A stretch of 64,000 nt of DNA from Escherichia coli (GTDB taxonomy: Bacteria > Pseudomonadota > Gammaproteobacteria > Enterobacterales > Enterobacteriaceae). Shown here in pieces: positions 1 to 20,149 of this stretch. The stretch is taken from the NCBI RefSeq assembly GCF_003790525.1, contig NZ_CP033635.1, one strand, 5' to 3'. Position numbers and translations under genes: made by a program. Positions within the stretch are counted from its first letter, which is position 1. The number at the start of each line of letters is the position of its first letter. The notes beneath the pieces were generated by a model. The model worked only from the letters and a program-made list of their open reading frames with translations. It searched no databases and was not told where the DNA came from.

Positions 1-549
1 CTGGGTTGTTAATAGATCAGGTTGCCAACTACCGACCAGGTAAATAGAAAGAAATAAGAAATAGGCAATCAATGGGAATACCAAAAATCCCATTACCCGA
101 ATGGTTGCATGGCGTCCCATCAGAAAAATGAGATTCAGGATTAATACAACCCCCAGACTCACCAACATACGGATGCGAAGATCAATAACCATATGCTTTG
201 CCAGCTGTTCTGTAAGTGAGTTGGTAATTGCCACTGCATATATCAACACGACGACAAAAAAGGCGATGAAGTACAGCGTGGTAATCAGATTACCAATCTT
301 CTTGCCATAGTAGTGTGTTACCGCGCCCGTTATCCCTTCACCTGCTGATGTTTTTGATGAGAGGATGAACTGGCATAAGGCTTTATGTGGCCAATATGTT
401 AAAGGCCAGGCGACCAGAGCAGTAATAAACAGGACCACAGCCCCTGCCGAACCTAACTGAATAGGAAGGAAGAGCGTGCCTGCACCAACGGCTGTGCCGT
501 AGAGCGCGAAACTCCACAGAGTTTCTTCTTTTGACCAAATATTAGACAT
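1..549 (-). CDS. yqeG: Putative amino-acid/H+ symporter YqeG, 5' part only (gene runs off the window start)
   Basis: Reverse-complement translation from the ATG at 547-549 reads MSNIWSKEETLW... and stays open to position 1; hydrophobic membrane-protein composition; position next to yqeF matches the K-12 order. Confidence 0.8.
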   Translation of the reverse strand, partial: MSNIWSKEETLWSFALYGTAVGAGTLFLPIQLGSAGAVVLFITALVAWPLTYWPHKALCQFILSSKTSAGEGITGAVTHYYGKKIGNLITTLYFIAFFVVVLIYAVAITNSLTEQLAKHMVIDLRIRMLVSLGVVLILNLIFLMGRHATIRVMGFLVFPLIAYFLFLSIYLVGSWQPDLLTTQ

Positions 550-803
550 TATCTGAACGTATCATCTACAAATTAAACAAAATGGAGGGCAATTTACCAT
601 AAACCAGGTTAAGTATGGGAGATTAACGCCCTATCTACCTCTCTATTGGTGGGTTAGTGGTTGCAAACCTTACGTGCCAGTTATGTCTCTGACTGCTACT
701 CAGGCGTATTTCCTTTGTGATAATAGTCACTTTTTTTAAACAATTAAGATAACTGTAATTAACAATCATTTACTATTGCACTGTTAATTGGTGCGAGGTT
801 GTG

Positions 804-1985
804 ATGAAAGACGTTGTGATTGTCGGGGCGTTACGGACACCTATCGGCTGCTTTCGTGGTGCGTTAGCGGGTCATTCCGCTGTGGAACTTGGCAGCCTGG
901 TCGTGAAAGCGTTAATAGAACGTACCGGCGTTCCTGCATATGCGGTGGATGAAGTAATTCTTGGTCAGGTGTTGACTGCAGGGGCAGGGCAGAATCCGGC
1001 AAGGCAATCGGCTATTAAAGGTGGTCTTCCTAACAGCGTTTCTGCAATCACTATTAATGACGTTTGCGGTTCCGGGCTTAAAGCACTGCATCTGGCTACT
1101 CAGGCGATCCAGTGTGGCGAGGCGGATATTGTCATCGCCGGTGGCCAGGAAAACATGAGCCGCGCACCACACGTTCTGACTGATAGCCGCACCGGTGCAC
1201 AGCTTGGCAATAGCCAGTTGGTTGATAGTCTGGTGCATGACGGCTTGTGGGATGCCTTCAATGATTATCATATTGGTGTCACCGCCGAAAATCTGGCTCG
1301 CGAATATGGCATCAGCCGTCAGTTGCAGGATGCTTACGCACTTAGCTCGCAACAAAAAGCGCGAGCGGCGATTGACGCCGGACGATTTAAAGATGAAATC
1401 GTCCCGGTAATGACCCAAAGTAACGGTCAGGCGTTGGTTGTTGATACCGATGAACAGCCACGCACTGACGCCAGTGCAGAAGGCTTGGCCCGTTTAAATC
1501 CTTCATTTGATAGTCTCGGTTCTGTGACAGCGGGTAATGCATCATCCATAAACGATGGCGCAGCTGCGGTAATGATGATGAGCGAAGCCAAAGCGCGAGC
1601 GTTGAATTTACCCGTGCTTGCCCGCATTCGCGCATTTGCCAGCGTTGGTGTAGATCCGGCATTAATGGGAATTGCGCCGGTGTATGCGACACGCCGTTGC
1701 CTGGAACGTGTCGGCTGGCAGTTGGCTGATGTCGATCTTATTGAGGCTAATGAAGCGTTTGCTGCTCAGGCGCTTTCGGTTGGCAAGATGCTTGAATGGG
1801 ATGAGCGTCGGGTCAATGTTAATGGTGGTGCGATCGCGCTCGGTCACCCAATAGGCGCGTCCGGTTGCCGAATCCTGGTTTCTCTGGTTCATGAAATGGT
1901 GAAACGTAATGCCCGCAAAGGACTGGCTACGCTTTGTATCGGCGGGGGCCAGGGCGTGGCATTGACCATTGAACGTGACGAATAG
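804..1985 (+). CDS. yqeF: Acetyl-CoA C-acetyltransferase (thiolase II family)
   Basis: ORF track 801..1985 (394 aa, GTG then ATG at 804); thiolase motifs (NDVCGSGL active-site Cys region, C-terminal GHPIGASGCR); starts MKDVVIVGALRTPIG as K-12 YqeF. Confidence 0.9.
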   Translation: MKDVVIVGALRTPIGCFRGALAGHSAVELGSLVVKALIERTGVPAYAVDEVILGQVLTAGAGQNPARQSAIKGGLPNSVSAITINDVCGSGLKALHLATQAIQCGEADIVIAGGQENMSRAPHVLTDSRTGAQLGNSQLVDSLVHDGLWDAFNDYHIGVTAENLAREYGISRQLQDAYALSSQQKARAAIDAGRFKDEIVPVMTQSNGQALVVDTDEQPRTDASAEGLARLNPSFDSLGSVTAGNASSINDGAAAVMMMSEAKARALNLPVLARIRAFASVGVDPALMGIAPVYATRRCLERVGWQLADVDLIEANEAFAAQALSVGKMLEWDERRVNVNGGAIALGHPIGASGCRILVSLVHEMVKRNARKGLATLCIGGGQGVALTIERDE

Positions 1986-2142
1986 CTCTGCATTTCCTCC
2001 TTACCGATAAATATCAGCCGTCATTAATCTGTTGAATAATGGTGGCTGGCGAGTCGACATACATTTTCAGGGCTCCCTGATTTTTCCATTCCCATGACAT
2101 ATTCGTGATCGACACTGCACTTTTTTCAGTCTTTACCTTAAA

Positions 2143-2161
2143 AATGAAACATTGTTTTATT
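2143..2161. promoter_or_regulatory. KdgR operator-like near-palindrome upstream of kduI
   Basis: AATGAAACATTGTTTTATT fits the KdgR box pattern AATRAAAYRNYRTTTYATT as I recall it; lies about 110 bp upstream of the kduI start. Confidence 0.5.
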
Positions 2162-2271
2162 TTTAATTGAAAACCCTATCCCGTGGGCATATCATCCCCT
2201 TATAGAGAAAACGAAACAGCGTTTCACTATCGTTTTCTATTTTCACGCTTCACTGATTATCGGAGGTTGAT

Positions 2272-3108
2272 GTGGACGTAAGACAGAGCATCCACAGTGC
2301 GCATGCAAAAACGCTGGATACCCAGGGGTTGCGCAATGAATTTTTGGTTGAAAAGGTATTTGTCGCCGATGAGTACACCATGGTTTACAGCCACATTGAC
2401 CGTATTATTGTTGGCGGCATTATGCCGGTAACTAAAACGGTTTCCGTTGGCGGGGAAGTTGGTAAACAACTCGGGGTAAGCTATTTCCTGGAACGTCGCG
2501 AGTTAGGTGTTATCAATATTGGCGGTGCCGGTACGATTACCGTCGATGGTCAATGCTATGAAATCGGTCACCGCGAAGCCCTGTATGTTGGTAAAGGCGC
2601 AAAAGAAGTTGTCTTTGCCAGTATTGATACCGCTACTCCGGCGAAGTTTTATTACAATTGCGCACCTGCGCATACGACGTATCCCACCAAAAAAGTCACA
2701 CCAGACGAAGTATCTCCAGTCACGTTAGGCGATAACCTCACCAGTAACCGTCGCACGATTAACAAATATTTTGTCCCGGATGTGCTGGAAACCTGCCAAT
2801 TGAGTATGGGGCTGACGGAGCTGGCTCCAGGTAACTTGTGGAACACCATGCCGTGTCACACCCACGAGCGCCGGATGGAAGTTTATTTCTATTTCAATAT
2901 GGATGATGACGCCTGCGTTTTCCACATGATGGGGCAGCCGCAAGAAACGCGTCATATTGTGATGCATAACGAGCAGGCGGTGATCTCCCCGAGCTGGTCG
3001 ATCCATTCCGGCGTCGGAACCAAAGCTTATACCTTTATCTGGGGCATGGTCGGTGAAAACCAGGTTTTTGATGATATGGACCATGTGGCCGTTAAAGATT
3101 TGCGCTAG
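2272..3108 (+). CDS. kduI: 5-dehydro-4-deoxy-D-glucuronate isomerase
   Basis: 278-aa ORF starting [20 protein letters not shown] (GTG start); matches K-12 KduI; followed 29 bp later by kduD. Confidence 0.9.
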
Positions 3109-3137
3109 TTGTGGGCATAAACGAATAAGGTATTGTT

Positions 3138-3899
3138 ATGATTTTAAGTGCATTTTCTCTCGAAGGTAAAGTTGCGGTCGTCACTGGTTGTGATACTGGG
3201 CTGGGCCAGGGGATGGCGTTGGGGCTGGCGCAAGCGGGCTGTGACATTGTTGGCATTAACATCGTTGAACCGACTGAAACCATCAAGCAGGTCACGGCGC
3301 TGGGGCGTCGTTTTTTAAGCCTGACCGCCGATCTGCGAAAGATTGATGGCATTCCAGCACTGCTGGATCGCGCGGTAGCGGAGTTTGGTCATATTGATAT
3401 CCTGGTGAATAACGCCGGATTGATTCGCCGCGAAGACGCTCTCGAGTTCAGCGAAAAAGACTGGGACGATGTCATGAACCTGAATATCAAGAGCGTATTC
3501 TTCATGTCTCAGGCAGCGGCGAAACACTTTATCGCGCAAGGCAATGGCGGCAAGATTATCAATATCGCGTCAATGCTCTCCTTCCAGGGCGGGATCCGTG
3601 TGCCTTCTTATACCGCATCAAAAAGCGGCGTGATGGGCGTGACGCGATTGATGGCGAATGAATGGGCTAAACACAACATTAATGTTAATGCGATAGCTCC
3701 GGGTTACATGGCGACCAACAATACTCAACAACTACGGGCAGATGAACAACGTAGCGCGGAAATTCTCGACCGCATTCCAGCTGGCCGTTGGGGACTGCCG
3801 AGTGACCTGATGGGGCCGGTAGTGTTTCTTGCCTCCAGTGCTTCAGATTATGTGAATGGTTATACCATTGCCGTGGATGGCGGTTGGCTGGCTCGTTAA
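3138..3899 (+). CDS. kduD: 2-dehydro-3-deoxy-D-gluconate 5-dehydrogenase (SDR family)
   Basis: 253-aa ORF with SDR Rossmann motif (VTGCDTGLG) and catalytic YTASK; matches K-12 KduD. Confidence 0.9.
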   Translation: MILSAFSLEGKVAVVTGCDTGLGQGMALGLAQAGCDIVGINIVEPTETIKQVTALGRRFLSLTADLRKIDGIPALLDRAVAEFGHIDILVNNAGLIRREDALEFSEKDWDDVMNLNIKSVFFMSQAAAKHFIAQGNGGKIINIASMLSFQGGIRVPSYTASKSGVMGVTRLMANEWAKHNINVNAIAPGYMATNNTQQLRADEQRSAEILDRIPAGRWGLPSDLMGPVVFLASSASDYVNGYTIAVDGGWLAR

Positions 3900-3920
3900 T
3901 CCATTCTTCTTACTTTTATG

Positions 3921-3946
3921 ACCCTGCCGCATGGCAGGGTTTTTTA
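3921..3946 (+). terminator. Intrinsic terminator after kduD
   Basis: Hairpin ACCCTGCC-gcatg-GGCAGGGT followed by a T-run, 22 bp after the kduD stop. Confidence 0.6.
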
Positions 3947-4213
3947 TACCTGTAGATCATCATAATCCATATCATGGTTATGAAATAATCCATATCAATT
4001 ATCAATTAATGAACTTTATGAATTTTATCTGCTTTAAAATTAGTTGGTTAATAATAATCTCAATAATTCAACTTAATTTGAAAATTGGAATATCCATCAC
4101 ATAACGACATGTCGCAGCAATTTAATCCATATTTATGCTATTTCCGACCTGACACCTGTGTGAATTGTTCACGTATTTTTTCACTATGTCTTACTCTCTG
4201 CTGGCAGGAAAAA

Positions 4214-5632
4214 ATGGTTACTATCAATACGGAATCTGCTTTAACGCCACGTTCTTTGCGGGATACGCGGCGTATGAATATGTTTGTTTCGGTAGCTGCT
4301 GCGGTCGCAGGATTGTTATTTGGTCTTGATATCGGCGTAATCGCCGGAGCGTTGCCGTTCATTACCGATCACTTTGTACTGACCAGTCGTTTGCAGGAAT
4401 GGGTGGTCAGTAGCATGATGCTCGGCGCAGCAATTGGTGCGCTGTTTAATGGTTGGCTGTCGTTCCGCCTGGGGCGTAAATACAGCCTGATGGCGGGGGC
4501 CATCCTGTTTGTACTCGGTTCGATAGGGTCCGCTTTTGCGACCAGCGTAGAGATGTTAATCGCCGCTCGTGTGGTGTTGGGCATTGCTGTCGGGATCGCG
4601 TCTTACACCGCTCCTCTGTATCTTTCTGAAATGGCAAGTGAAAACGTTCGCGGTAAGATGATCAGCATGTACCAGTTGATGGTCACTCTCGGCATCGTGC
4701 TGGCGTTTTTATCCGATACAGCGTTCAGTTATAGCGGTAACTGGCGCGCAATGTTGGGGGTTCTTGCTTTACCAGCAGTTCTGCTGATTATTCTGGTGGT
4801 CTTCCTGCCAAATAGCCCGCGCTGGCTGGCGGAAAAGGGGCGTCATATTGAGGCGGAAGAAGTATTGCGTATGCTGCGCGATACGTCGGAAAAAGCGCGA
4901 GAAGAACTCAACGAAATTCGTGAAAGCCTGAAGTTAAAACAGGGCGGTTGGGCACTGTTTAAGATCAACCGTAACGTCCGTCGTGCTGTGTTTCTCGGTA
5001 TGTTGTTGCAGGCGATGCAGCAGTTTACCGGTATGAACATCATCATGTACTACGCGCCGCGTATCTTCAAAATGGCGGGCTTTACGACCACAGAACAACA
5101 GATGATTGCGACTCTGGTCGTGGGGCTGACCTTTATGTTCGCCACCTTCATTGCGGTCTTTACGGTAGATAAAGCAGGGCGTAAACCGGCTCTGAAAATT
5201 GGTTTCAGCGTGATGGCGTTAGGCACTCTGGTGCTGGGTTACTGCCTGATGCAGTTTGATAACGGTACGGCTTCCAGTGGCTTGTCCTGGCTCTCTGTTG
5301 GCATGACGATGATGTGTATTGCCGGTTATGCGATGAGCGCCGCGCCAGTGGTGTGGATCCTGTGCTCTGAGATTCAGCCGCTGAAATGCCGCGATTTTGG
5401 CATCACCTGTTCGACGACGACAAACTGGGTGTCGAATATGATTATCGGCGCGACCTTCCTGACACTGCTTGATAGCATTGGCGCTGCCGGTACGTTCTGG
5501 CTCTACACTGCGTTGAACATTGCGTTTGTGGGCATTACTTTCTGGCTCATTCCGGAAACCAAAAATGTCACGCTGGAACATATCGAGCGCAAACTGATGG
5601 CAGGCGAAAAGTTGAGAAATATCGGCGTCTGA
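4214..5632 (+). CDS. araE: Arabinose:H+ symporter (MFS sugar porter)
   Basis: ORF 4085..5632; the true start is most likely the internal ATG at 4214 ([15 protein letters not shown]..., the K-12 AraE N-terminus); the upstream 43 codons are an in-frame extension. Confidence 0.9.
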
Positions 5633-5638
5633 TTTCAC

Positions 5639-5671
5639 GGGCCGGATGTGCTGTACATCCGGCCCTTTTTT
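5639..5671 (+). terminator. Intrinsic terminator after araE
   Basis: GGGCCGGATG-tgctgta-CATCCGGCCC followed by TTTTTT, immediately after the araE stop. Confidence 0.7.
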
Positions 5672-5760
5672 CGTTAATAGAGATTAGGCACCTGGCCGTT
5701 GAGGCGTTTGTCTCGTTCCTTATTCAGCCTTGTTGCGGTAACACACATCAGGAGAGAGGA

Positions 5761-6337
5761 ATGAAAACAATTGGTTTGCTGGGAGGAATGAGCTGGGAAT
5801 CCACTATTCCTTACTATCGTCTGATAAATGAAGGCATTAAACAGCGGCTTGGTGGGCTTCACTCTGCGCAAGTGCTGCTACATAGCGTCGATTTTCATGA
5901 AATAGAAGAGTGCCAGCGTCGCGGTGAGTGGGACAAAACCGGGGATATTCTGGCTGAGGCGGCGCTTGGCTTACAGCGGGCGGGCGCAGAAGGCATTGTG
6001 TTATGTACCAATACGATGCACAAAGTGGCGGATGCCATTGAGTCTCGTTGCTCTCTGCCTTTCTTACATATAGCGGATGCCACTGGACGTGCAATTACCG
6101 GGGCAGGAATGACTCGTGTGGCGCTGCTGGGTACGCGTTACACCATGGAACAGGATTTTTATCGCGGGCGGCTGACGGAACAATTTTCCATCAACTGTCT
6201 TATTCCTGAAGCGGATGAACGGGCGAAAATTAATCAGATTATTTTTGAAGAACTGTGTCTGGGGCAATTTACCGAAGCGTCACGCGCTTATTATGCGCAA
6301 GTGATTGCTCGCCTTGCAGAACAGGGCGCACAGGGCG
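5761..6337 (+). pseudogene. ygeA: ygeA (Asp/Glu-racemase family amino-acid racemase), 5' fragment interrupted by IS4
   Basis: ORF 5761..6354 reads [21 protein letters not shown]... up to ...AEQGAQG, then enters the IS4 left end where the last four codons and stop are IS-derived; the native continuation ([11 protein letters not shown]...) resumes after the element. Confidence 0.85.
6326..6337. repeat. 12-bp target-site duplication, left copy (GCGCACAGGGCG)
   Basis: Identical 12-mer directly abuts both ends of the IS4 element (6326-6337 and 7764-7775). Confidence 0.85.
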
Positions 6338-7763
6338 TAATGCCGATCAGTTAAGGATCAGTTGACCGATCCAGTGGCTGTGTAAGAATCCGGAAACGCT
6401 CACTTGTTTCCGGATTTTTTTATGCACATTGGACAGGCTCTTGATCTGGTATCCCGTTACGATTCTCTGCGTAACCCACTGACTTCTCTGGGGGATTACC
6501 TCGACCCCGAACTCATCTCTCGTTGCCTTGCCGAATCAGGTACTGTAACGCTACGCAAGCGCCGTCTTCCCCTCGAAATGATGGTCTGGTGTATTGTTGG
6601 CATGGCGCTTGAGCGTAAAGAACCTCTTCACCAGATTGTGAATCGCCTGGACATCATGCTGCCGGGCAATCGCCCCTTCGTTGCCCCCAGTGCCGTTATT
6701 CAGGCCCGCCAGCGCCTGGGAAGTGAGGCTGTCCGCCGCGTGTTCACGAAAACAGCGCAGCTCTGGCATAACGCCACGCCGCATCCGCACTGGTGCGGCC
6801 TGACCCTGCTGGCCATCGATGGTGTGTTCTGGCGCACACCGGATACACCAGAGAACGATGCAGCCTTCCCCCGCCAGACACATGCCGGGAACCCGGCGCT
6901 CTACCCGCAGGTCAAAATGGTCTGCCAGATGGAACTGACCAGCCATCTGCTGACGGCTGCAGCCTTCGGCACGATGAAGAACAGCGAAAATGAGCTTGCT
7001 GAGCAACTTATAGAACAAACCGGCGATAACACTCTGACGTTAATGGATAAAGGTTATTACTCACTGGGACTGTTAAATGCCTGGAGCCTGGCGGGAGAAC
7101 ACCGCCACTGGATGATACCTCTCAGAAAGGGAGCGCAATATGAAGAGATCAGAAAACTGGGTAAAGGCGATCATCTGGTGAAGCTGAAAACCAGCCCGCA
7201 GGCACGAAAAAAGTGGCCGGGACTGGGAAATGAAGTGACAGCCCGCCTGCTGACCGTGACGCGCAAAGGAAAAGTCTGCCATCTGCTGACGTCGATGACG
7301 GACGCCATGCGCTTCCCCGGAGGAGAAATGGCGGAACTGTACAGTCATCGCTGGGAAATCGAACTGGGATACAGGGAGATAAAACAGACGATGCAACTGA
7401 GCAGGCTGACGCTGAGAAGTAAAAAACCGGAGCTTGTGGAGCAAGAGCTGTGGGGTGTCTTACTGGCTTATAATCTGGTGAGATATCAGATGATTAAAAT
7501 GGCGGAACATCTGAAAGGTTACTGGCCGAATCAACTGAGTTTCTCAGAATCATGCGGAATGGTGATGAGAATGCTGATGACATTGCAGGGCGCTTCACCG
7601 GGACGTATACCGGAGCTGATGCGCGATCTTGCAAGTATGGGACAACTTGTGAAATTACCGACAAGAAGGGAAAGGGCCTTCCCGAGAGTGGTAAAGGAGA
7701 GGCCCTGGAAATACCCCACAGCCCCGAAAAAGAGCCAGTCAGTTGCTTAACTGACTGGCATTA
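6338..7763 (+). mobile_element. Insertion sequence IS4, complete copy (1426 bp)
   Basis: 18-bp terminal inverted repeats TAATGCCGATCAGTTAAG (6338-6355) and the reverse complement of CTTAACTGACTGGCATTA (7746-7763), one mismatch between them; single transposase ORF; flanked by a 12-bp direct repeat; length equals the known IS4 size. Confidence 0.9.
6422..7750 (+). CDS. insG: IS4 transposase (DDE family)
   Basis: 442-aa ORF from the ATG at 6422 ([19 protein letters not shown]...); the ORF track starts 18 bp earlier at a TTG. Confidence 0.9.
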
Positions 7764-7775
7764 GCGCACAGGGCG
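7764..7775. repeat. 12-bp target-site duplication, right copy (GCGCACAGGGCG)
   Basis: See left copy. Confidence 0.85.
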
Positions 7776-7891
7776 TCATTTTTGGCTGCACAGAAATTGG
7801 TTTACTGGTGCCAGAAGAGCGCAGTGTTCTGCCTGTGTTTGATACCGCGGCGATCCATGCCGAGGATGCTGTCGCTTTTATGCTGTCGTAG
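7764..7891 (+). pseudogene. ygeA: ygeA 3' fragment downstream of IS4
   Basis: In-frame continuation ...[41 protein letters not shown] ending at TAG 7889-7891; overlaps the convergent lysR 3' end. Confidence 0.8.
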
Positions 7892-8813
7892 CTGACGACA
7901 AAATAGCGTCAAGAGAAGTGACCAGTTTCGGTAATCCCGCTTGTAAATGCTCACTAAACGCCTGCACCAGCGCTGATGACGGGCGGTGCAGGGGGCGGAT
8001 CAGGCTGACAGTGAACGGAACCGCAATGCTGAACCGCCGCACCACTAAACCGCTTGCCGCATAATCCAGTGCGGTGAGTGGGTTAACTACCGAAACGCCT
8101 ACCCCCGCCCGTACCATTGCGCAGACTGACGCGGCGCTGTGGGTTTCTACGATCATGCGTCGTTTAACCTGATTCTCAGTAAACAATTGATCCAGGAACT
8201 GGCGATAGCTGTCAGTACGGGAAAGGCTGATGTAGTTTTCACCGTGAAAATCATCCGGCGTTAATACCTTTTTTACCGCCAGCGGATGGCCCGGAGGTAA
8301 CACACACACTTCATCTAAAGAGAGTAATTCGGTACGTTCTGTTCCCGCAGGCGTATGGAGTGTCTCAGTGAGTCCTAAATCATGACGCTGGGCCGAGAGC
8401 CACTCTTCAAGTAGCGGTGATTCCTGGGGCACGATGTTTAAGCTGACATCGGGATAACGTGCCAGAAAGGGTTGCAGGAGCTGCGGTAAAAAAGATTGCG
8501 AAAAGACCGGCAGGCAGGCAATAGACAGTTCTCCCTGGCGAAACTCGCGCAGACTTTCTGCGGCACTGACAATGCGATCCAGTCCGTACCAGGATCGTTG
8601 CACTTCTTCAAACAGACGCAGTCCTTGCACGGTAGGATGTAATCGTCCACGTATGCGCTCAAACAATTTCAGCCCGATAACCTTCTCAAAGCGCGCCAGT
8701 TCGCGGCTGACGGTTGGCTGTGAGGTGTGTAGCAGGTGTGCCGCCTCAGTCAGGCTTCCGGCGGTCATTACCGCATGAAAAATTTCAATATGACGTAAGT
8801 TAACGGCGGCCAT
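7878..8813 (-). CDS. lysR: LysR transcriptional activator of lysA
   Basis: 311-aa [31 protein letters not shown]... with N-terminal HTH; divergent from lysA. Confidence 0.9.
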
Positions 8814-8934
8814 TAGCGCTCTCTCGCAATCCGGTAATCCATATCATTTTTGCATAGACTCGACATAAATCGATATTTTTTATTCTTTTTATGATGTGGC
8901 GTAATCATAAAAAAGCACTTATCTGGAGTTTGTT

Positions 8935-10197
8935 ATGCCACATTCACTGTTCAGCACTGATACCGATCTCACCGCCGAAAATCTGCTGCGTTTGCCCGCA
9001 GAATTTGGCTGCCCGGTGTGGGTCTACGATGCGCAAATTATTCGTCGGCAGATTGCAGCGCTGAAACAGTTTGATGTGGTGCGCTTTGCACAGAAAGCCT
9101 GTTCCAATATTCATATTTTGCGCTTAATGCGTGAGCAGGGCGTGAAAGTGGATTCCGTCTCGTTAGGCGAAATAGAGCGTGCACTGGCGGCGGGTTACAA
9201 TCCGCAAACGCACCCCGATGATATTGTTTTTACGGCAGATGTTATCGATCAGGCGACGCTTGAACGCGTCAGTGAATTGCAAATTCCGGTGAATGCGGGT
9301 TCTGTTGATATGCTCGACCAACTGGGTCAGGTTTCGCCAGGGCATCGGGTATGGCTGCGTGTTAATCCGGGGTTTGGTCACGGGCATAGCCAAAAAACCA
9401 ATACCGGTGGCGAAAACAGCAAGCACGGTATCTGGTACACCGATCTGCCCGCCGCACTGGACGTGATACAACGTCATCATCTACAGCTGGTCGGCATTCA
9501 CATGCACATTGGTTCTGGCGTTGATTATGCCCATCTGGAACAGGTATGTGGTGCTATGGTGCGTCAGGTCCTCGAATTCGGTCAGGATTTACAGGCTATT
9601 TCTGCGGGCGGTGGGCTTTCTATTCCTTATCAACAGGGTGAAGAGGCGGTTGATACCGAACATTATTATGGTCTGTGGAATGCCGCGCGTGAGCAAATCG
9701 CCCGCCATTTGGGCCATCCTGTGAAACTGGAAATTGAACCGGGTCGCTTTCTGGTAGCGCAGGCTGGCGTATTAATTACTCAAGTGCGGAGCGTCAAACA
9801 AATGGGTAGCCGCCACTTTGTGCTGGTTGATGCCGGGTTCAACGATCTGATGCGCCCGGCAATGTACGGTAGTTACCACCATATCAGTGCCCTGACAGCT
9901 GATGGTCGTTCTCTGGAATACGCGCCAACGGTGGAAACCGTCGTCGCCGGGCCGTTATGTGAATCGGGCGATGTCTTTACCCAGCAAGAAGGGGGAAATG
10001 TTGAAACCCGCGTCTTACCGGAAGTGAAGGCGGGTGATTATCTGGTACTGCATGATACGGGGGCATATGGCGCATCAATGTCATCCAACTACAACAGTCG
10101 TCCGCTGTTACCAGAAGTTCTGTTTGATAATGGTCAGGCGCGGTTGATTCGCCGTCGCCAGACCATTGAAGAATTACTGGCGCTGGAATTGCTTTAA
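8935..10197 (+). CDS. lysA: Diaminopimelate decarboxylase
   Basis: 420-aa ORF; PLP fold III decarboxylase; matches K-12 LysA. Confidence 0.9.
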   Translation: MPHSLFSTDTDLTAENLLRLPAEFGCPVWVYDAQIIRRQIAALKQFDVVRFAQKACSNIHILRLMREQGVKVDSVSLGEIERALAAGYNPQTHPDDIVFTADVIDQATLERVSELQIPVNAGSVDMLDQLGQVSPGHRVWLRVNPGFGHGHSQKTNTGGENSKHGIWYTDLPAALDVIQRHHLQLVGIHMHIGSGVDYAHLEQVCGAMVRQVLEFGQDLQAISAGGGLSIPYQQGEEAVDTEHYYGLWNAAREQIARHLGHPVKLEIEPGRFLVAQAGVLITQVRSVKQMGSRHFVLVDAGFNDLMRPAMYGSYHHISALTADGRSLEYAPTVETVVAGPLCESGDVFTQQEGGNVETRVLPEVKAGDYLVLHDTGAYGASMSSNYNSRPLLPEVLFDNGQARLIRRRQTIEELLALELL

Positions 10198-10203
10198 CTG
10201 CGG

Positions 10204-11235
10204 TTAGTCGCTGGTTGCATGATGACTTGCCTCCAGCGACGGAGTTGACACTGAATGGCGACGTACCAGCGTCGGACTAAAGACATTAGTGATTTCCGGG
10301 AGAGGGCGATTATCCGCCAGCGCCAAAGCCAGTTCGGCAGCCTGCGTCGCCATCGTCACGATTGGGTAACGCACGGTGGTCAGACGCGGACGCACATAGC
10401 GTGACACCAGCACATCATCAAAGCCAATTAACGAAATCTCACCCGGTACATCAATACCATTATCATTGAGAACGCCCATCGCGCCCGCCGCCATTGAATC
10501 GTTATAACAGGCTACCGCAGTGAAATTTCTTCCTCGTCCCAAAAGCTCGGTCATTGCCTGTTCACCGCCGCTTTCGTCTGGTTCGCCAAATGTCACCAGC
10601 CGATCATTGGTCGGAATACCACTTTCAGCAAGGGCATCGTAATACCCTTGCAGACGATCTTCGGCGTCAGAAATAGAGTGGTTAGAGCACAGATAACCAA
10701 TGCGGGTATGACCTTGCTGAATTAAATGACGCGTTGCCAGCCAGGCACCGTAACGATCGTCCAGAGCAATACAACGGTTTTCAAAGCCAGGCAGGATACG
10801 GTTGATCAGCACCATACCGGGCATTTGTTTCATTAATGAGGCTAAATCGGCATCCGGGATCATTTTGGCATGGACAACCAGCGCAGCACAGCGATGGCGG
10901 ATCAGTTGCTCAATGGCCTGACGCTCTTTTTGTTCGTTGTGGTAACCGTTGCCAATCAATAAAAAATTACCAGTGTGATAAGCCACCTGTTCGACCGCTT
11001 TCACCATTGCACCGAAAAACGGATCGGAAACATCACCAACGACCAGACCGACCGTTTCAGTGGTCTGCTGCGCCAGCGCACGGGCGTTGGCGTTCGGGTG
11101 ATAGCTAAGAGACTCCATTGCACTATGCACAGCAAGCCGGGAAGCTTCGCTGGCTTTGGGTGAATTATTAATGACGCGGGAAACGGTGGCGACTGAAACG
11201 CCTGCCAGTCGGGCTACATCCTTTATGGTCGCCAT
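10204..11235 (-). CDS. galR: Galactose operon repressor (LacI family)
   Basis: 343-aa ORF MATIKDVARLAGVSVATVSRVIN... with LacI-type HTH. Confidence 0.9.
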   Translation of the reverse strand: MATIKDVARLAGVSVATVSRVINNSPKASEASRLAVHSAMESLSYHPNANARALAQQTTETVGLVVGDVSDPFFGAMVKAVEQVAYHTGNFLLIGNGYHNEQKERQAIEQLIRHRCAALVVHAKMIPDADLASLMKQMPGMVLINRILPGFENRCIALDDRYGAWLATRHLIQQGHTRIGYLCSNHSISDAEDRLQGYYDALAESGIPTNDRLVTFGEPDESGGEQAMTELLGRGRNFTAVACYNDSMAAGAMGVLNDNGIDVPGEISLIGFDDVLVSRYVRPRLTTVRYPIVTMATQAAELALALADNRPLPEITNVFSPTLVRRHSVSTPSLEASHHATSD

Positions 11236-11448
11236 GAAAATACCTTAGTGGGTAAACGCTTACATTCTTTCAGTGTTACGGAAAACGCCCGTTGGTTCAA
11301 GGGGGGGCGTGTTTTCATCGTGGGAATGTGAGCCAAACGCAAATAAGTAAGACAAAAAAAGAGATTGCAAACCTTTGGTTACACTTTGCGAAACGCTGTT
11401 GCGATTGACCGCTGGTGGCGTTTGGCTTCAGGTTGCTAAAGTGGTGAT

Positions 11449-11530
11449 CCCAGAGGTATTGATAGGTGAAGTCAACTTCGGGTTGAGCACATGAATTACA
11501 CCAGCCTGCGCAGATGCGCAGGTTTTTTTT
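11449..11530 (+). ncRNA. omrB: OmrB small RNA
   Basis: Starts CCCAGAGGTATTGATAGGTGAAGTC..., ends with GC-rich hairpin GCGCAGATGCGCAGG plus a T-run; shares 5' and 3' ends with the copy about 200 bp downstream; sits between galR and aas as in K-12. Confidence 0.85.
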
Positions 11531-11645
11531 TGCCGGTCATCAATCTGTAACAGTAACCGACAATTTACACACCTCGTTGCATTTCCCTTCATTCCTTTGC
11601 GTTTTCTCGCTGGCGAAGAGTCGTTGTGCAGACCACAATCAAGAT

Positions 11646-11733
11646 CCCAGAGGTATTGATTGGTGAGATTATTCGGTACGCTCTTCGTACCCTGTCTCTT
11701 GCACCAACCTGCGCGGATGCGCAGGTTTTTTTT
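11646..11733 (+). ncRNA. omrA: OmrA small RNA
   Basis: Starts CCCAGAGGTATTGATTGGTGAGATTATTCGG..., ends with hairpin GCGCGGATGCGCAGG plus a T-run; paralog of omrB. Confidence 0.85.
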
Positions 11734-11799
11734 CGCACCTAATTTACTGTCGCTCGCGTTCTTTATCTCGTGTAATCTCCCTCCATTCGCTTTTACTGA

Positions 11800-15166
<3,367 letters not shown>

Positions 15167-15204
15167 GCTTTCACCAGATGGCATATTCCGCCATCTGGTG
15201 AACG

Positions 15205-16860
15205 TCACATTCCCGAAGGGTGCATACCTTTCGGATACTTCACGCTGTATGAGAATGGCAGACTCACGTTCTCTTTACCTGACAGTTTCAGCGTCCAGGA
15301 CAGTTCACCCGTTTTCGCATCAAACTGCGCCTGACCATACTGCATTTTTTCCACCGTAATATCACTATTAGCACTGACTGGGATCTGGTCGAGCAGAGTG
15401 ATATCCACCGCGTCGCCGTAGCTGTTCTTTACATTAAGGGTGTAACTGAAGTTGCGCACCGCGCTGTCATTAAAGATAGATAACGCATTCTCTTTTTTGA
15501 GTACGGCTTTACGTTGAATAATCAGCTTGGGATCGCGGTTAAGCTGAATATCCAGCGACTTGCCATCTTCCGGCGGCTGCAAATAGCCCACGCCGGTACG
15601 ATTGTTACCAAAGAAGATCTGACTTTCGCCGGGGATTAAATTTAACTGTTCCCACTCTTTAATTTGCACCTGGAGATAAGCGTCATTACTGATCTTCGGA
15701 ATAGCAAAGAAGCGATATTCACCGCTGACCGATTCCTCCTTAATGACCACCGTGCGCGCGGTGTTGTCGCTGTCGATTTGCCACGGCAGCGAAAGCGCAT
15801 AGCGAACATTTTGCGCGGTGAAACTTTCTGGTCGCGCCGAAGCTGGTGCTGCCTGTGCGGCATACTTGCGCCCGGCTGGTCGCTCCCTTGATTTTTGCAT
15901 CTCTGCCTCCAGGGATTTCTGCAATTCTGATGCATCCTGGTCAGACGAATATTCCGAACGCTGTTTCATCACGGGTGTTGCTGAAAGCGAGCCGCTTACA
16001 CCACCATACTCAGTCACATCCACATACAGAGGTTCCAGGTGTGGCAGCGTGAGATGAGTATCAGGTTCACTGGTCGAGAGCACGAGATTAACGTTTTTCC
16101 ATGGCAACCCCGTATACTGGCGAATATTAGCCTTGTAAACCAGACGCAGCGGTTGGTTTATGCCCGTGGCGTGAATATCATAGATCGGCGTCCATGTAGC
16201 ATCAGGAGTTATATAATGCACCACCGCTTTCGCAGTGACGGCTTTTGGGACATATACCTTAGCGATGATAACCTGCGGATCATCGGATGCCTCTGAATCA
16301 CCGTTATTCATACTCTCGCGTTGCTCCAACTTTTCAATTCCAAGCTGGTTATCAGCAAGTTTCTGCGTCAACTCATTGTCAGCCCGTAATAACTCACCAT
16401 TTTTCTCTTTCACCATTTGCAGATACTTGCCAACTTCGGCGGCACTTTTATTGGTTAATGTGCTATTTGCCTCTAATACCTTAATTTGAGCCGCGATATT
16501 GTTTTTCTCGGCGGTCAGTTTTGCCTGTTCCACCTTTACTGCTTTTAACTGTTGCTGAGTATCTGACGGCAGCGCATTCGGCTGTGTTTCCATTAGCGCG
16601 ATACGTGAGGAAAGCACCGTCACTCCGTTATCGATAGAAATGGCGATGCTGTCGTCGGTTACCGAATTGGCGATATTAGTGAAAATAATTTCGCTTTCAC
16701 CTGCCGGTAAGTTGAGTGTCTCTTCACCTTGTAGGCTGGCACCATGCAGATAAACAGTGACGTCTTTGAGTGTTAGCGCTTGAGTTAACTGCGCCCCCCA
16801 GGCGGAGGACAGGCACCCGGTAAGCAACATGGCGAGGGGAATAGGTTTGAAAATCAACAT
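15205..16860 (-). CDS. Hypothetical secreted or lipo-protein with central coiled coil (DUF4139/DUF4140-like architecture, tentative); not recalled in K-12
   Basis: ORF track 15205..16875 (556 aa, TTG); likelier start is the ATG at 16858-16860 preceded by AAGGA (MLIFKPIPLAMLLTGCLSSAWGAQ...); N-terminal signal peptide with possible lipobox LTGC; heptad-like QQQLKAVKVEQAKLTAEKNNIAAQIKVLEAN...; domain assignment is from memory. Confidence 0.7.
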   Translation of the reverse strand: MLIFKPIPLAMLLTGCLSSAWGAQLTQALTLKDVTVYLHGASLQGEETLNLPAGESEIIFTNIANSVTDDSIAISIDNGVTVLSSRIALMETQPNALPSDTQQQLKAVKVEQAKLTAEKNNIAAQIKVLEANSTLTNKSAAEVGKYLQMVKEKNGELLRADNELTQKLADNQLGIEKLEQRESMNNGDSEASDDPQVIIAKVYVPKAVTAKAVVHYITPDATWTPIYDIHATGINQPLRLVYKANIRQYTGLPWKNVNLVLSTSEPDTHLTLPHLEPLYVDVTEYGGVSGSLSATPVMKQRSEYSSDQDASELQKSLEAEMQKSRERPAGRKYAAQAAPASARPESFTAQNVRYALSLPWQIDSDNTARTVVIKEESVSGEYRFFAIPKISNDAYLQVQIKEWEQLNLIPGESQIFFGNNRTGVGYLQPPEDGKSLDIQLNRDPKLIIQRKAVLKKENALSIFNDSAVRNFSYTLNVKNSYGDAVDITLLDQIPVSANSDITVEKMQYGQAQFDAKTGELSWTLKLSGKENVSLPFSYSVKYPKGMHPSGM

Positions 16861-16974
16861 GGTTATCCTTAACAATGGGCACAGACATTGAAACGCGCGC
16901 TGGCGTTGACCAAAAGAGTCTATTGCGCTTTGTCAGGAAAGATGCGGCGAAAAGTAGTGAATACATTCTGAAAA

Positions 16975-17011
16975 GTGGAGAAAAGAGACGCCTGGCGCAA
17001 AACACCAGGCG
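16975..17011 (-). terminator. Intrinsic terminator after tas
   Basis: On the minus strand: CGCCUGGUG-uuuug-CGCCAGGCG followed by UCUCUUUUCUCC, just downstream of the tas stop; implies the downstream unknown gene has its own promoter. Confidence 0.5.
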
Positions 17012-17017
17012 AAAGGA

Positions 17018-18058
17018 TCACGGTGCCGGATACGTATAAACCTGATGCACCGCTTCAATTTCAGCTAATACGTCTTCGCTTAACTCCAGATGCAAACTTT
17101 CGACGTTAGTTTTCAGCTGCTCCATCGTGGTTGCGCCCAGCAGAGTGCTGGCAACAAACGGTTGACGGCGTACAAAAGCGAGCGCCATCTGAGCAGGATC
17201 CAGGCCATGACGTCTGGCGATATCAACATACGCCGCGACGGCTTTTTGCGTTTGCTCACCGCTATAGCGGGTGAACCGACTAAAGAGCGTATTACGTGCG
17301 CCAGCGGGTTTTGCACCATTGAGATATTTCCCGGTCAGCGTGCCGAAACCCAGGCACGAATAGGCCAGCAGTTCGACCCCTTCATACTGACTGACTTCTG
17401 CCAGACCTACTTCAAAACTGCGGTTTAACAGACTGTAGGGATTTTGAATGGTGACAATACGCGGCAGATCGTGTTTGTCCGCCAGATGCAGGTAGCGCAT
17501 TACGCCAAATGCAGTTTCGTTCGACACGCCGATATAACGAATTTTTCCCGCGCGTTGGTACTCTGCCAGTGCGTCCAGTGTATCCAGCAGCGAAACCGCA
17601 GGCGCAGAATCTGTCCAGCTATAACCGAGTTTGCCGAAGCAGTTGGTTGGGCGCTGCGGCCAGTGCACCTGATAGAGATCGAGGTAATCAGTCTGCAGAC
17701 GCTTGAGGCTGTCATGCAGCGCTTCGCGGATATTCTTCCGATCCAGCGCCTGATCCGGGCGGATGCCTTTGTCATTATTGCGCGACGGTCCGCTCACTTT
17801 GGAGGCGATAATTAACTTTTCGCGGCTGCCATGTTTCGCCAGCCAGTTGCCGACGTAGGTTTCGGTTAGCCCTTGAGTTTCGGGGCGCGGAGGTACTGGG
17901 TACATTTCGGCAACGTCGATAAGGTTAATGCCCTGAGCGACGGCATAGTCGAGTTGTGCGTGGGCGTCGGCTTCGCTGTTCTGTTCACCAAACGTCATCG
18001 TGCCAAGCCCCAGCGTGCTGACTTCCAGCGAACTGTGGGGTATACGGTGATATTGCAT
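17018..18058 (-). CDS. tas: NADP(H)-dependent aldo-keto reductase
   Basis: 346-aa ORF MQYHRIPHSSLEVSTLGLGTMTFG...; matches K-12 Tas. Confidence 0.9.
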   Translation of the reverse strand: MQYHRIPHSSLEVSTLGLGTMTFGEQNSEADAHAQLDYAVAQGINLIDVAEMYPVPPRPETQGLTETYVGNWLAKHGSREKLIIASKVSGPSRNNDKGIRPDQALDRKNIREALHDSLKRLQTDYLDLYQVHWPQRPTNCFGKLGYSWTDSAPAVSLLDTLDALAEYQRAGKIRYIGVSNETAFGVMRYLHLADKHDLPRIVTIQNPYSLLNRSFEVGLAEVSQYEGVELLAYSCLGFGTLTGKYLNGAKPAGARNTLFSRFTRYSGEQTQKAVAAYVDIARRHGLDPAQMALAFVRRQPFVASTLLGATTMEQLKTNVESLHLELSEDVLAEIEAVHQVYTYPAP

Positions 18059-18165
18059 AGCCGTTTCCTTTTTATAATCACAACATAAGGAATATAAAAA
18101 TGGCAGAGGGAAGGGAAAAGTGAAAGAGAAAAATCTTAAGGCCAGCCGGATGCTGACCTTATTTG

Positions 18166-18384
18166 TTAACGTTCAATAATTTGCGAAACATCATCACGGT
18201 TAATTTGCATCGCGTTACCTTGCTGATCGTGATAACTCACCAGCCCGGTATCATCATCAATTTCAGGTTTTCCATCGGTCAAAATCATACGGCCATCTTT
18301 GGTCGCCATGACGTAATCACTGGAACACCCGGAAACAGCAAACGCCAGTCCGACTGCAGAAATTATTACTGCCCATTTTTTCAT
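18166..18384 (-). CDS. ygdR: Small lipoprotein (DUF903 family)
   Basis: 72-aa ORF with lipobox AVSGC; paralog of ygdI in this window. Confidence 0.85.
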
Positions 18385-18521
18385 CCGGTTATCCTCATTT
18401 GGCCCACCTATGATAATAGTCTGTTTATAAACCGACGTTATATATCTTGAAAGCAGGAAAATCTTAAACTGTGAGGGTAACAGGAGTGAGTACGCCCTCC
18501 CGCAGGAGAGCGTACGGAGTA

Positions 18522-19235
18522 TCAGAGCGGATTCTTTTTGTTGCGAATCAGGTTGAGGCTTTCAACCGCAATAGAGAAGAACATCGCAAAGTAGATGTAA
18601 CCTTTCGGTACGTGGATGTCGAAACTTTCCAGAATCAAGGTAAAGCCCACCAGAATCAGGAAAGAGAGCGCCAGCATTTTTACCGAAGGATGGCGTTCGA
18701 CAAAATCACCAATCGAGCGTGCGGCGAACATCATCACGCCTACGGCAATCACCACGGCGGCCATCATAATAAACAGGTGATCTGACAGACCCACAGCGGT
18801 AATCACCGAGTCGAGGCTGAAGATAATATCCAGCAGCATAATCTGCACGATAGCGCCGAGGAATGATGAAACGCGTGTTTTCAGCCCTTCTTCTTCACCT
18901 TCAATGGATTCGTGGATTTCCTTGCTGGCTTTCCAGATAAGGAACAAGCCACCCAGAAGCAGAATCAAATCACGGGCGGAAATTTCCTGGCTGAATATTG
19001 TAAAAAGCGGATTTGTCAGGCGCGTAACCCAGGCGATGGATGCCAGCAGCGCCAGACGCATAACCATGGCTCCCGCCAACCCCAGACGGCGCGCATGAGC
19101 ACGTTGTGCTGTGGGGAGCTTTGCCACCACCAGAGAAAGGAAAATAATATTGTCGATCCCAAGAACGATCTCCAGCAGCGTCAGCGTACCGAGCGCAAGC
19201 CAGGCGTTAGGATCGGTTATCCATGCAAATAACAT
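18522..19235 (-). CDS. ygdQ: TerC-family integral membrane protein
   Basis: 237-aa hydrophobic ORF; matches K-12 YgdQ. Confidence 0.85.
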
Positions 19236-19303
19236 CTAAAAAGCCCTGCCAAAAAAATGAAGCGGTAATTATATGCCCGGAAAGCGGCAGGTCAAAGCGA
19301 TGG

Positions 19304-19993
19304 CTACTGGATCAGAAAATGACGGGCCAGTAGCGCACTGGTGAAATTCTTCTTCAAATAAAAGCCGCGCGGCAGCGTCAGAATCCGTTCGCCCCGGACA
19401 CCAATGGCTTCGGTAAGCGCTTTCGCATTCGCTGCTTTCGGTCGTATCTGTAAATATTCCCCGTGACGAGCGGTGATCCGCTCAACCTGACCGAGAACAA
19501 TCATATCCATTAATTCTTCCCAGTCTTCGCGCAGTTGCCGGTCTTCCTCTTCATTCGGGCTCCACAGTAACGGTGATCCTACGCGACGCTGCGCCAGCGG
19601 GATGCTGCGCTCGCCTTCAACCGGTATCCACAGTACGCGTTTGAGCTTGTGGCGCACGTGGCTGGTTTCCCAGGTCACCCCGCTATTACCCGTTAACGGG
19701 GCAACACAAACGAATGTTGTTTCCAGCGGACGACCAAGACTATCCACAGGGATAGTTTTAAGTTCCACGCCCAGAGCAGCAAAATCTTGCTCAGGTTTAC
19801 TCCCTGCGCTGGCACCTAGCCAGATCTCCAGTAACACGCCAATCCAGCCCTTATCGCGTTTTAAATTCTCCGGCGTCACCAGCCCAGCAAGTGCCGCCAG
19901 TTCTCCCAATGTATAACCAGAAAGTTGTTGTGCTTGCGCTAACAATTGTTCTTCAGTTTCGGGAGGAGAGAGCAGTGGGCGAGGTTGGGACAT
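19304..19993 (-). CDS. mutH: Methyl-directed mismatch repair endonuclease
   Basis: 229-aa [36 protein letters not shown]...; matches K-12 MutH. Confidence 0.9.
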
Positions 19994-20149
19994 GTCACGA
20001 TACCTTGGTTAAAAAACAAACAGCAATTATGTGCCGAATATTCGCAGTGTAACTTTTTCCACAGGCGTTGTTCAATTCTCTGATTTATATTGCTTTTTAG
20101 GTTGCCGGTAATCGAGTTGCGCAACACTGCAATGGGTTTTCCAAATCTG

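Follow-up and report, generated by a model that had tools for sequence, protein, structure and literature searches.

A predicted two-operator KdgR control region upstream of the kduI-kduD operon in a non-K-12 lineage of Escherichia coli

In Dickeya dadantii (Erwinia chrysanthemi), the KdgR operators of the pectinolysis genes are built on the same 21-bp palindrome that is considered here, with GAAAC-N3-GTTTC half-sites. Dickeya dadantii and E. coli have in common the 2-keto-3-deoxygluconate (KDG) pathway (kduI, kduD), a regulator of the IclR family and the logic of KDG as the inducer (PMC5559549), whereas E. coli has no pectinases and only a small KdgR regulon. The published 21-mer consensus of the KdgR box is AAATGAAACAnTGTTTCATTT (PMC5559549, quoting Rodionov et al., 2000, 2004). 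In E. coli, kdgK and kdgT are the classical KdgR targets (PMC6892915; PMC6958661), and the K-12 boxes upstream of kdgK, kdgT, and tabA (yjgK) share the motif (TAATGGAACACTGTTTTAATA, AAATAAAACAGCGTTTCAATT, and AAATGAAACGTTGTTTTAATT, respectively).

The control of kduI-kduD by KdgR is already known biology. It was reported that kduI carries a KdgR box (Shimada et al., 2019, PMC6958661, citing Rodionov 2000, 2004), and the same study found kduD mRNA to be increased in a kdgR deletion mutant and called kduD a known KdgR target. Both kduI and kduD were over-expressed in a strain without kdgR, and direct repression was predicted (Sastry et al., 2019, PMC6892915). Expression of kduD was also raised in Klebsiella isolates without kdgR and exuR, which the authors credited to a KdgR site at kduD (PMC8612250). 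We found no gel shift, footprint, or ChIP experiment with KdgR on the E. coli kduI promoter in the open-access literature. What has been published on KdgR here comes from genetics and transcriptomics, and would therefore formally be compatible with an indirect effect of kdgR as well.

Here we describe the region upstream of kduI in the window, i.e., the whole 64,000-nucleotide stretch of E. coli DNA that was analyzed. Beyond what is already known, our analysis contributes only two conserved elements, a second box across the promoter from the first and a CRP-like site. We put at about 0.88 the probability that the palindrome flagged in a preliminary description of this DNA is the distal one of two operators through which KdgR controls the kduI-kduD operon; in this model the start site, the occupancy of the boxes, and the steric or cooperative mode of action are predicted.

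The flagged palindrome and the kduI promoter

The genes at this end of the window are yqeG (partial), yqeF (801/804-1985), kduI, kduD, and araE, in this order. The features of the control region and of the two kdu genes are as follows.

2101-2122 (no strand assigned): CRP-like site ATTCGTGATCGACACTGCACTT, centre 2111.5, about -90.5 from the predicted start and about 40 bp upstream of O1
2142-2162 (no strand assigned): O1, the predicted distal KdgR box AAATGAAACATTGTTTTATTT, containing 2143-2161; centre 2152, about -50 from the predicted start
2167-2172 (plus strand): -35 hexamer TTGAAA of the kduI promoter, from a promoter scan; invariant in 79 of 79 orthologues
2190-2195 (plus strand): -10 hexamer TATCAT after a 17-bp spacer, from the same scan; TAnnAT and the spacer are invariant in 79 of 79 orthologues
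2202 (plus strand): predicted transcription start, an A placed 7 nt past the -10 hexamer, in an alignment column with about 90% conservation
2209-2229 (no strand assigned): O2, the predicted proximal KdgR box AAACGAAACAGCGTTTCACTA, matching 16 of 20 consensus positions; centre 2219, about +18
2262-2266 (plus strand): Shine-Dalgarno sequence GGAGG of kduI, read from the sequence; the columns are about 90% conserved
2272-3108 (plus strand): kduI, 5-dehydro-4-deoxy-D-glucuronate isomerase, with a GTG start; open reading frame, NCBIfam NF002091 (454.8 bits), and the RefSeq annotation of an identical genome
3138-3899 (plus strand): kduD, 2-dehydro-3-deoxy-D-gluconate 5-dehydrogenase; open reading frame, NCBIfam NF006528 (554.5 bits), and annotation

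The preliminary description had taken AATGAAACATTGTTTTATT for a near-palindromic, KdgR-box-like sequence upstream of kduI, and this was borne out. The 19-mer lies on the plus strand at exactly 2143-2161 in the yqeF-kduI spacer, which is 286 bp long. From the centre of the 19-mer to the downstream GTG start codon of kduI (2272) there are 120 bp, and the sequence differs from its own reverse complement at three positions. With one base added on either side it becomes O1 (2142-2162), which agrees with the published consensus at 19 of the 20 specified positions and scores 29.9 bits with an independent matrix. This matrix was made from three K-12 boxes only (those upstream of kdgK, kdgT, and tabA), with kduI excluded, and the score of O1 is equal to those of the training sites against their own matrix. 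The best site in the window apart from those at kduI reached 13.0 bits, and in 100 simulations of a 64-kb sequence the top score averaged 13.2 bits and went no higher than 20.4 bits.

Counting of mismatches gave the same picture. O1 has one mismatch to the consensus, and under an independent-base model the number of sites with at most one mismatch is expected to be about 3e-6 per 64 kb. In a Markov null model of the window (200 first-order simulations), the mean number of sites was 0 at three or fewer mismatches, 0.035 at four or fewer, and 0.44 at five or fewer, and only O1 and O2 lie within five mismatches in the real 64 kb. Among the K-12 boxes that were located, those of kdgT and tabA have three mismatches each and that of kdgK has five, so that O1 is closer to the consensus than any other E. 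coli site of the KdgR regulon that we extracted. The loose 15-mer core pattern TGAAACNNNGTTTCA with two mismatches allowed is not informative in this respect, as it gave three hits in the window against 3.3 expected by chance; the significance of O1 derives from the full 21-mer and its position, not from this core pattern. The third of these hits, at 5193-5207 inside araE, is more than six mismatches away from the full consensus and was rejected as a chance match.

Two further genes were left out of the matrix, namely eda and yeeO. Although eda was reported as a target of both KdgR and PlaR, the 643 bp upstream of K-12 eda (within edd) contain no 21-mer within seven mismatches of the KdgR consensus, and only a weak 19-mer, ATTGGACCGGTGTTTCAAA, was seen about 349 bp upstream. 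The stretch examined upstream of yeeO likewise contains no KdgR box.

The end of O1 and the -35 hexamer are 4 bp apart. The two hexamers of the kduI promoter are the same as those given for kduI among the promoters that were bound by the RpoD holoenzyme alone in gSELEX (Shimada et al., PMC3946193). We found no experimentally determined start site for kduI in the literature, and the positions of -50 and +18 for the two boxes may thus be off by a few bp. Counted from the predicted start at A2202, the 5' leader of kduI is about 70 nt long. Both Kdu proteins hit their NCBIfam models (NF002091 and NF006528) as equivalogs. The kduD gene begins 29 bp downstream of kduI and is likely to be on the same transcript, and the consensus scan detected no KdgR-like box in the kduI-kduD intergenic region.

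With galacturonate or glucuronate as inducers, the expression from a kduI reporter fragment rose 7- to 54-fold (Rothe et al., 2013, PMC3578941). This fragment corresponds to positions 1948-2304 of the window, so that all the control elements (the CRP-like site, O1, the promoter, and O2) are inside it. The fragment used as the "kduD promoter" in the same work maps to 2733-3181, in the 3' part of kduI, and contains no KdgR-like box within six mismatches; because of this, its reported 3- to 20-fold induction by hexuronates is unexplained by the elements described here.

Two other observations concern the surroundings of the operon. A terminator-like hairpin (TCAGGGCTCCCTGA, followed by TTTTTCC) lies at 2067-2090, 80 bp past the stop codon of yqeF, and is likely the yqeF terminator; in K-12 its stem is shortened by two substitutions. 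Farther downstream, in the RefSeq annotation of a genome that is identical over window positions 1-20000, the amino-acid racemase gene ygeA is interrupted by an IS4-family element (approximately 6343-7765). The ygeA gene at the corresponding place in K-12 is presumably intact.

The second box and conservation across genera

O2 scores 20.7 bits with the kdgK/kdgT/tabA matrix, just over the highest simulated maximum. The centres of O1 and O2 are 67 bp apart, and the TTGAAA-17-TATCAT promoter lies between the two boxes. With 10.5 bp per turn this distance makes up 6.4 turns, so that there is no obvious advantage for simple in-phase looping.

To place these elements in a comparative frame, KduI was searched for in one genome per species, which gave 80 loci, all Enterobacteriaceae-like, with 91-99% protein identity. 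The alignment contained 79 distinct upstream sequences, i.e., the window and 78 fetched loci from about 18 named genera, after the removal of two anomalous contigs; Dickeya, Pectobacterium, and Yersinia, in which KdgR has been best studied, are outside this set. One of the removed contigs, labelled a "Deltaproteobacteria MAG," carries an E. coli-type kduI of 99% identity joined, from 25 bp upstream of the start, to unrelated DNA that is unmatched in any complete E. coli genome, and it is probably a chimeric or contaminated assembly. In the other, a Klebsiella MAG, kduI directly follows another gene.

All 79 orthologues have TGAAAC and GTTT as the half-sites of O1, around three central bases that vary (ATT, AAT, GAT, GTT, AAC, ATC, GAC, and GCT). 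The distance from the centre of O1 to the -35 hexamer is 15 bp in all 79, and the score of O1 is at least 20.5 bits in all 79. The -10 hexamer, in which TAnnAT is constant, occurs in seven variants of the middle two bases. Conserved half-sites around a free centre argue for base-specific contacts with the half-sites rather than for simple A+T richness, because G2146, C2150, and G2154 are invariant while A and T in the centre and the outer flanks vary.

The pattern ACG[G/A]AAC-N3-GTTT[C/T] of O2 is also kept across the orthologues. The score of O2 is weak in most genera (median 12.8 bits over the 79 upstream regions) and strongest in Escherichia. O1 and O2 are most often 67 bp apart (54 sequences); the other distances are 68 bp (22 sequences), 69 bp (two), and 66 bp (one). 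The distance from the -10 hexamer to O2 shifts by 1-2 bp between genera. O2 differs from O1 consistently at positions 4, 6, 17, and 18 of the 21-mer, where it has C, G, C, and G instead of T, A, T, and A. Such differences would fit a situation in which O1 and O2 are not redundant, either with a KdgR tetramer bridging both in a promoter-wrapping complex, or with KdgR on O1 and PlaR on O2 integrating KDG with galacturonate/ascorbate signals; we consider this a possible, though rather unlikely, arrangement. We found no description of either the bridging or the division of labor for E. coli kduI.

In several Enterobacter spp. (five loci), a third good KdgR-like box, e.g., ATCAAAACAATGTTTCATT, is present about 241 bp upstream of kduI. 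It is absent from E. coli and may belong to a different upstream neighbor gene.

The site at 2101-2122 is a probable activator site. In the orthologues CGTGATC, then CA, and then TT are kept at the positions of the CRP consensus. In E. coli, 2104-2119 (CGTGATCGACACTGCA) matches six of the ten positions of the TGTGA-N6-TCACA core, which is not above chance when taken alone; the right half is better in Citrobacter (TTACA). It was shown in gel shifts that CRP binds to the kduI promoter, and activation was also reported (PMC8085971), and kduI expression was decreased in a crp deletion mutant (PMC8846999). The yqeF-kduI spacer contains no ExuR/UxuR-like site (the best candidate has 8 mismatches in 18 against an ExuR consensus) and no FNR site (at best 3 mismatches in 10).

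At the level of strains, positions 1-20000 of the window are 100% identical to several complete genomes, e.g., that of TUM1586, and the yqeF-kduI spacer is 95.1% identical to that of K-12. O1 is identical in K-12. A 36-mer over O1 and the -35 hexamer was found exactly in 4123 of 5418 E. coli genomes, and most of the others have one change. O2 has C at position 2220 in the window vs T in K-12 and most E. coli, and the exact 41-mer with C2220 is present in 467 of 5417 E. coli genomes. C2220, which is in the central spacer of O2, recreates an AGCG centre that the K-12 kdgT box and many other genera also have, so that the change is probably neutral, and loss of function would not be expected.

The repressor gene kdgR lies outside the 64-kb window; 5424 of 5426 complete E. 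coli genomes carry it. Its intactness was judged by proxy from TUM1586, which has an intact kdgR of 263 codons; the product is identical to K-12 KdgR at 262 of 263 residues (99.6%), with L100I as the sole change, and it shares with K-12 KdgR all of the first 99 residues, where the DNA-binding domain should lie. As a side observation, the order of the trp and fli-kdgR regions in TUM1586 (1.87-2.55 Mb) is reversed relative to K-12 but the orientation of the kduI region is not, and a large chromosomal inversion is therefore implied in that assembly.

The preliminary description had also proposed that kduI-kduD are under KdgR repression in this strain as in K-12. This is supported by the consensus match and the conservation of O1, by its identity with K-12, by the intact kdgR of TUM1586, and by the K-12 literature, all of which point to repression by KdgR in this strain as well. 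That first reading was incomplete rather than wrong, having missed O2, the CRP-like site, and PlaR, a reported co-repressor.

KdgR, PlaR, and other readings of the boxes

PlaR (YiaJ) is an IclR-family paralogue of KdgR with 34% identity, and it recognizes nearly the same palindrome; its reported effectors are ascorbate and galacturonate, while that of KdgR is KDG. It is conceivable that the boxes are mainly PlaR operators, and that the effect of a kdgR deletion is indirect, through cross-regulation between PlaR and KdgR. A gSELEX peak and a gel shift of PlaR were reported at the kduI promoter, kduD mRNA was increased in a plaR deletion mutant, and the mRNAs of plaR and kdgR were each increased when the other gene was deleted (PMC6958661). 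The motifs are nearly the same, with the printed PlaR box ATnTGAAACnnnGTTCAnTT agreeing with O1 at 12 of 15 positions (13 of 16 for the corrected version), and the recognition helices are similar (KSTVYRFLQ in KdgR and KSTVHRLLQ in PlaR). However, the fit of O1 to the KdgR consensus (19/20) is better, and O1 is nearer to the kdgK, kdgT, and tabA boxes than to the best candidate PlaR box of the plaR-yiaK spacer, TTTGAAATCAAGTTTCG; that spacer contains no 21-mer within seven mismatches of the KdgR consensus. The PlaR gel shifts were made with 1-5 uM of protein (PMC6958661). The YiaJ i-modulon comprises 10 genes (precision 1.0 and recall 0.91 vs the YiaJ regulon), apparently without kduI, while kduI and kduD were reported with the kdgR deletion (PMC6892915). 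Moreover, if plaR goes up when kdgR is lost, kduD expression should go down, not up, by an indirect route through PlaR. We therefore consider it improbable that the boxes serve mainly PlaR. Because the YiaJ i-modulon apparently lacks kduI and the candidate PlaR box is more than seven mismatches away from the KdgR consensus, KdgR is taken as the main occupant of the boxes; the two proteins are 34% identical and have similar recognition helices, so that sequence alone cannot assign the occupancy.

A second alternative is that no dedicated regulator acts here, the flagged palindrome being a product of chance in A+T-rich DNA or an A+T-rich UP-like element in front of the -35 hexamer. The region is indeed A+T rich, H-NS was flagged at the yqeF-kduI spacer (PMC3946193), and, as described above, the 15-mer core pattern occurs in the window at chance frequency. 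The full 21-mer match of O1 is expected far too rarely for this, G2146, C2150, and G2154 do not vary, and a second copy of the motif is found 67 bp away, all of which make this explanation very unlikely. Least credible of all is that the sequence is not a protein-binding site but an RNA hairpin, e.g., a weak terminator or attenuator of transcripts that read through from yqeF. As RNA, the palindrome can form a 13-bp stem with U's behind it (-8.1 kcal/mol, z = -4.4 vs shuffled sequences). However, the stem is almost all A-U without a G+C-rich core, there is no Rfam match, the outer pair 2144/2160 varies without covariation (A..T, G..A, G..G, T..T, and G..C in the orthologues), a better terminator-like hairpin for yqeF is located upstream at 2067-2080, and the same motif recurs in DNA at O2 and upstream of kdgK, kdgT, and tabA.

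With KdgR as the main occupant, the layout suggests how repression may work. Without the inducer, KdgR would sit on O1 (about -50) and on the weaker O2 (about +18). A repressor at O2 would occupy the downstream DNA that RNA polymerase must hold, and so would block initiation or promoter escape, while a repressor at O1, between the polymerase and the CRP-like site (about -90), should block the contact between the alpha subunit and CRP. The two bound dimers may cooperate over the 67 bp that contain the promoter. When hexuronates or pectin are catabolized, KDG would be formed and would take KdgR off the DNA, and the intrinsically good promoter, TTGAAA-17-TATCAT, could then fire with the assistance of cAMP-CRP. 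The paralogue PlaR, with its near-identical box, may add a second layer of repression.

Comparison with described two-site systems

The present analysis leaves the knowledge of the KdgR regulon unchanged, and its value is mainly one of annotation. It indicates that in a non-K-12 lineage of E. coli the usual KdgR control of kduI-kduD is retained, with an O1 as in K-12 and one central-spacer change in O2, and it gives base-level coordinates for the whole control region, from the CRP-like site through O1, the -35 and -10 hexamers, and O2 to the ribosome-binding site. These could guide the design of reporters or biosensors for KDG and hexuronates. The conserved two-box layout also offers a testable example of an IclR-family repressor that possibly brackets a promoter.

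A kduID operon with two KdgR-binding sites is said to have been described in Bacillus subtilis, in the title of a 2007 report by Lin and Shaw (cited in PMC6353982). The resemblance to E. coli extends to the same operon, a repressor named KdgR, and two sites upstream of kduI. However, the KdgR of B. subtilis is a LacI-family protein with a different motif. It is not homologous to E. coli KdgR, and the likeness is one of analogy only.

A closer parallel within the IclR family is IclR itself at the aceBAK promoter, where Yamamoto and Ishihama reportedly found, in 2003, two separated boxes and two modes of repression. As at kduI, an IclR-family repressor uses a core-promoter site together with an upstream one, while the protein, the motif, and the spacing are different. 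Members of this family bind as dimers or tetramers, and their tandem sites are mostly 18-22 bp apart (PMC8222616), as compared with 67 bp for O1 and O2. Within E. coli, the kdgK, kdgT, and tabA promoters have a single box each at the threshold used, whereas at kduI two boxes bracket the core promoter.
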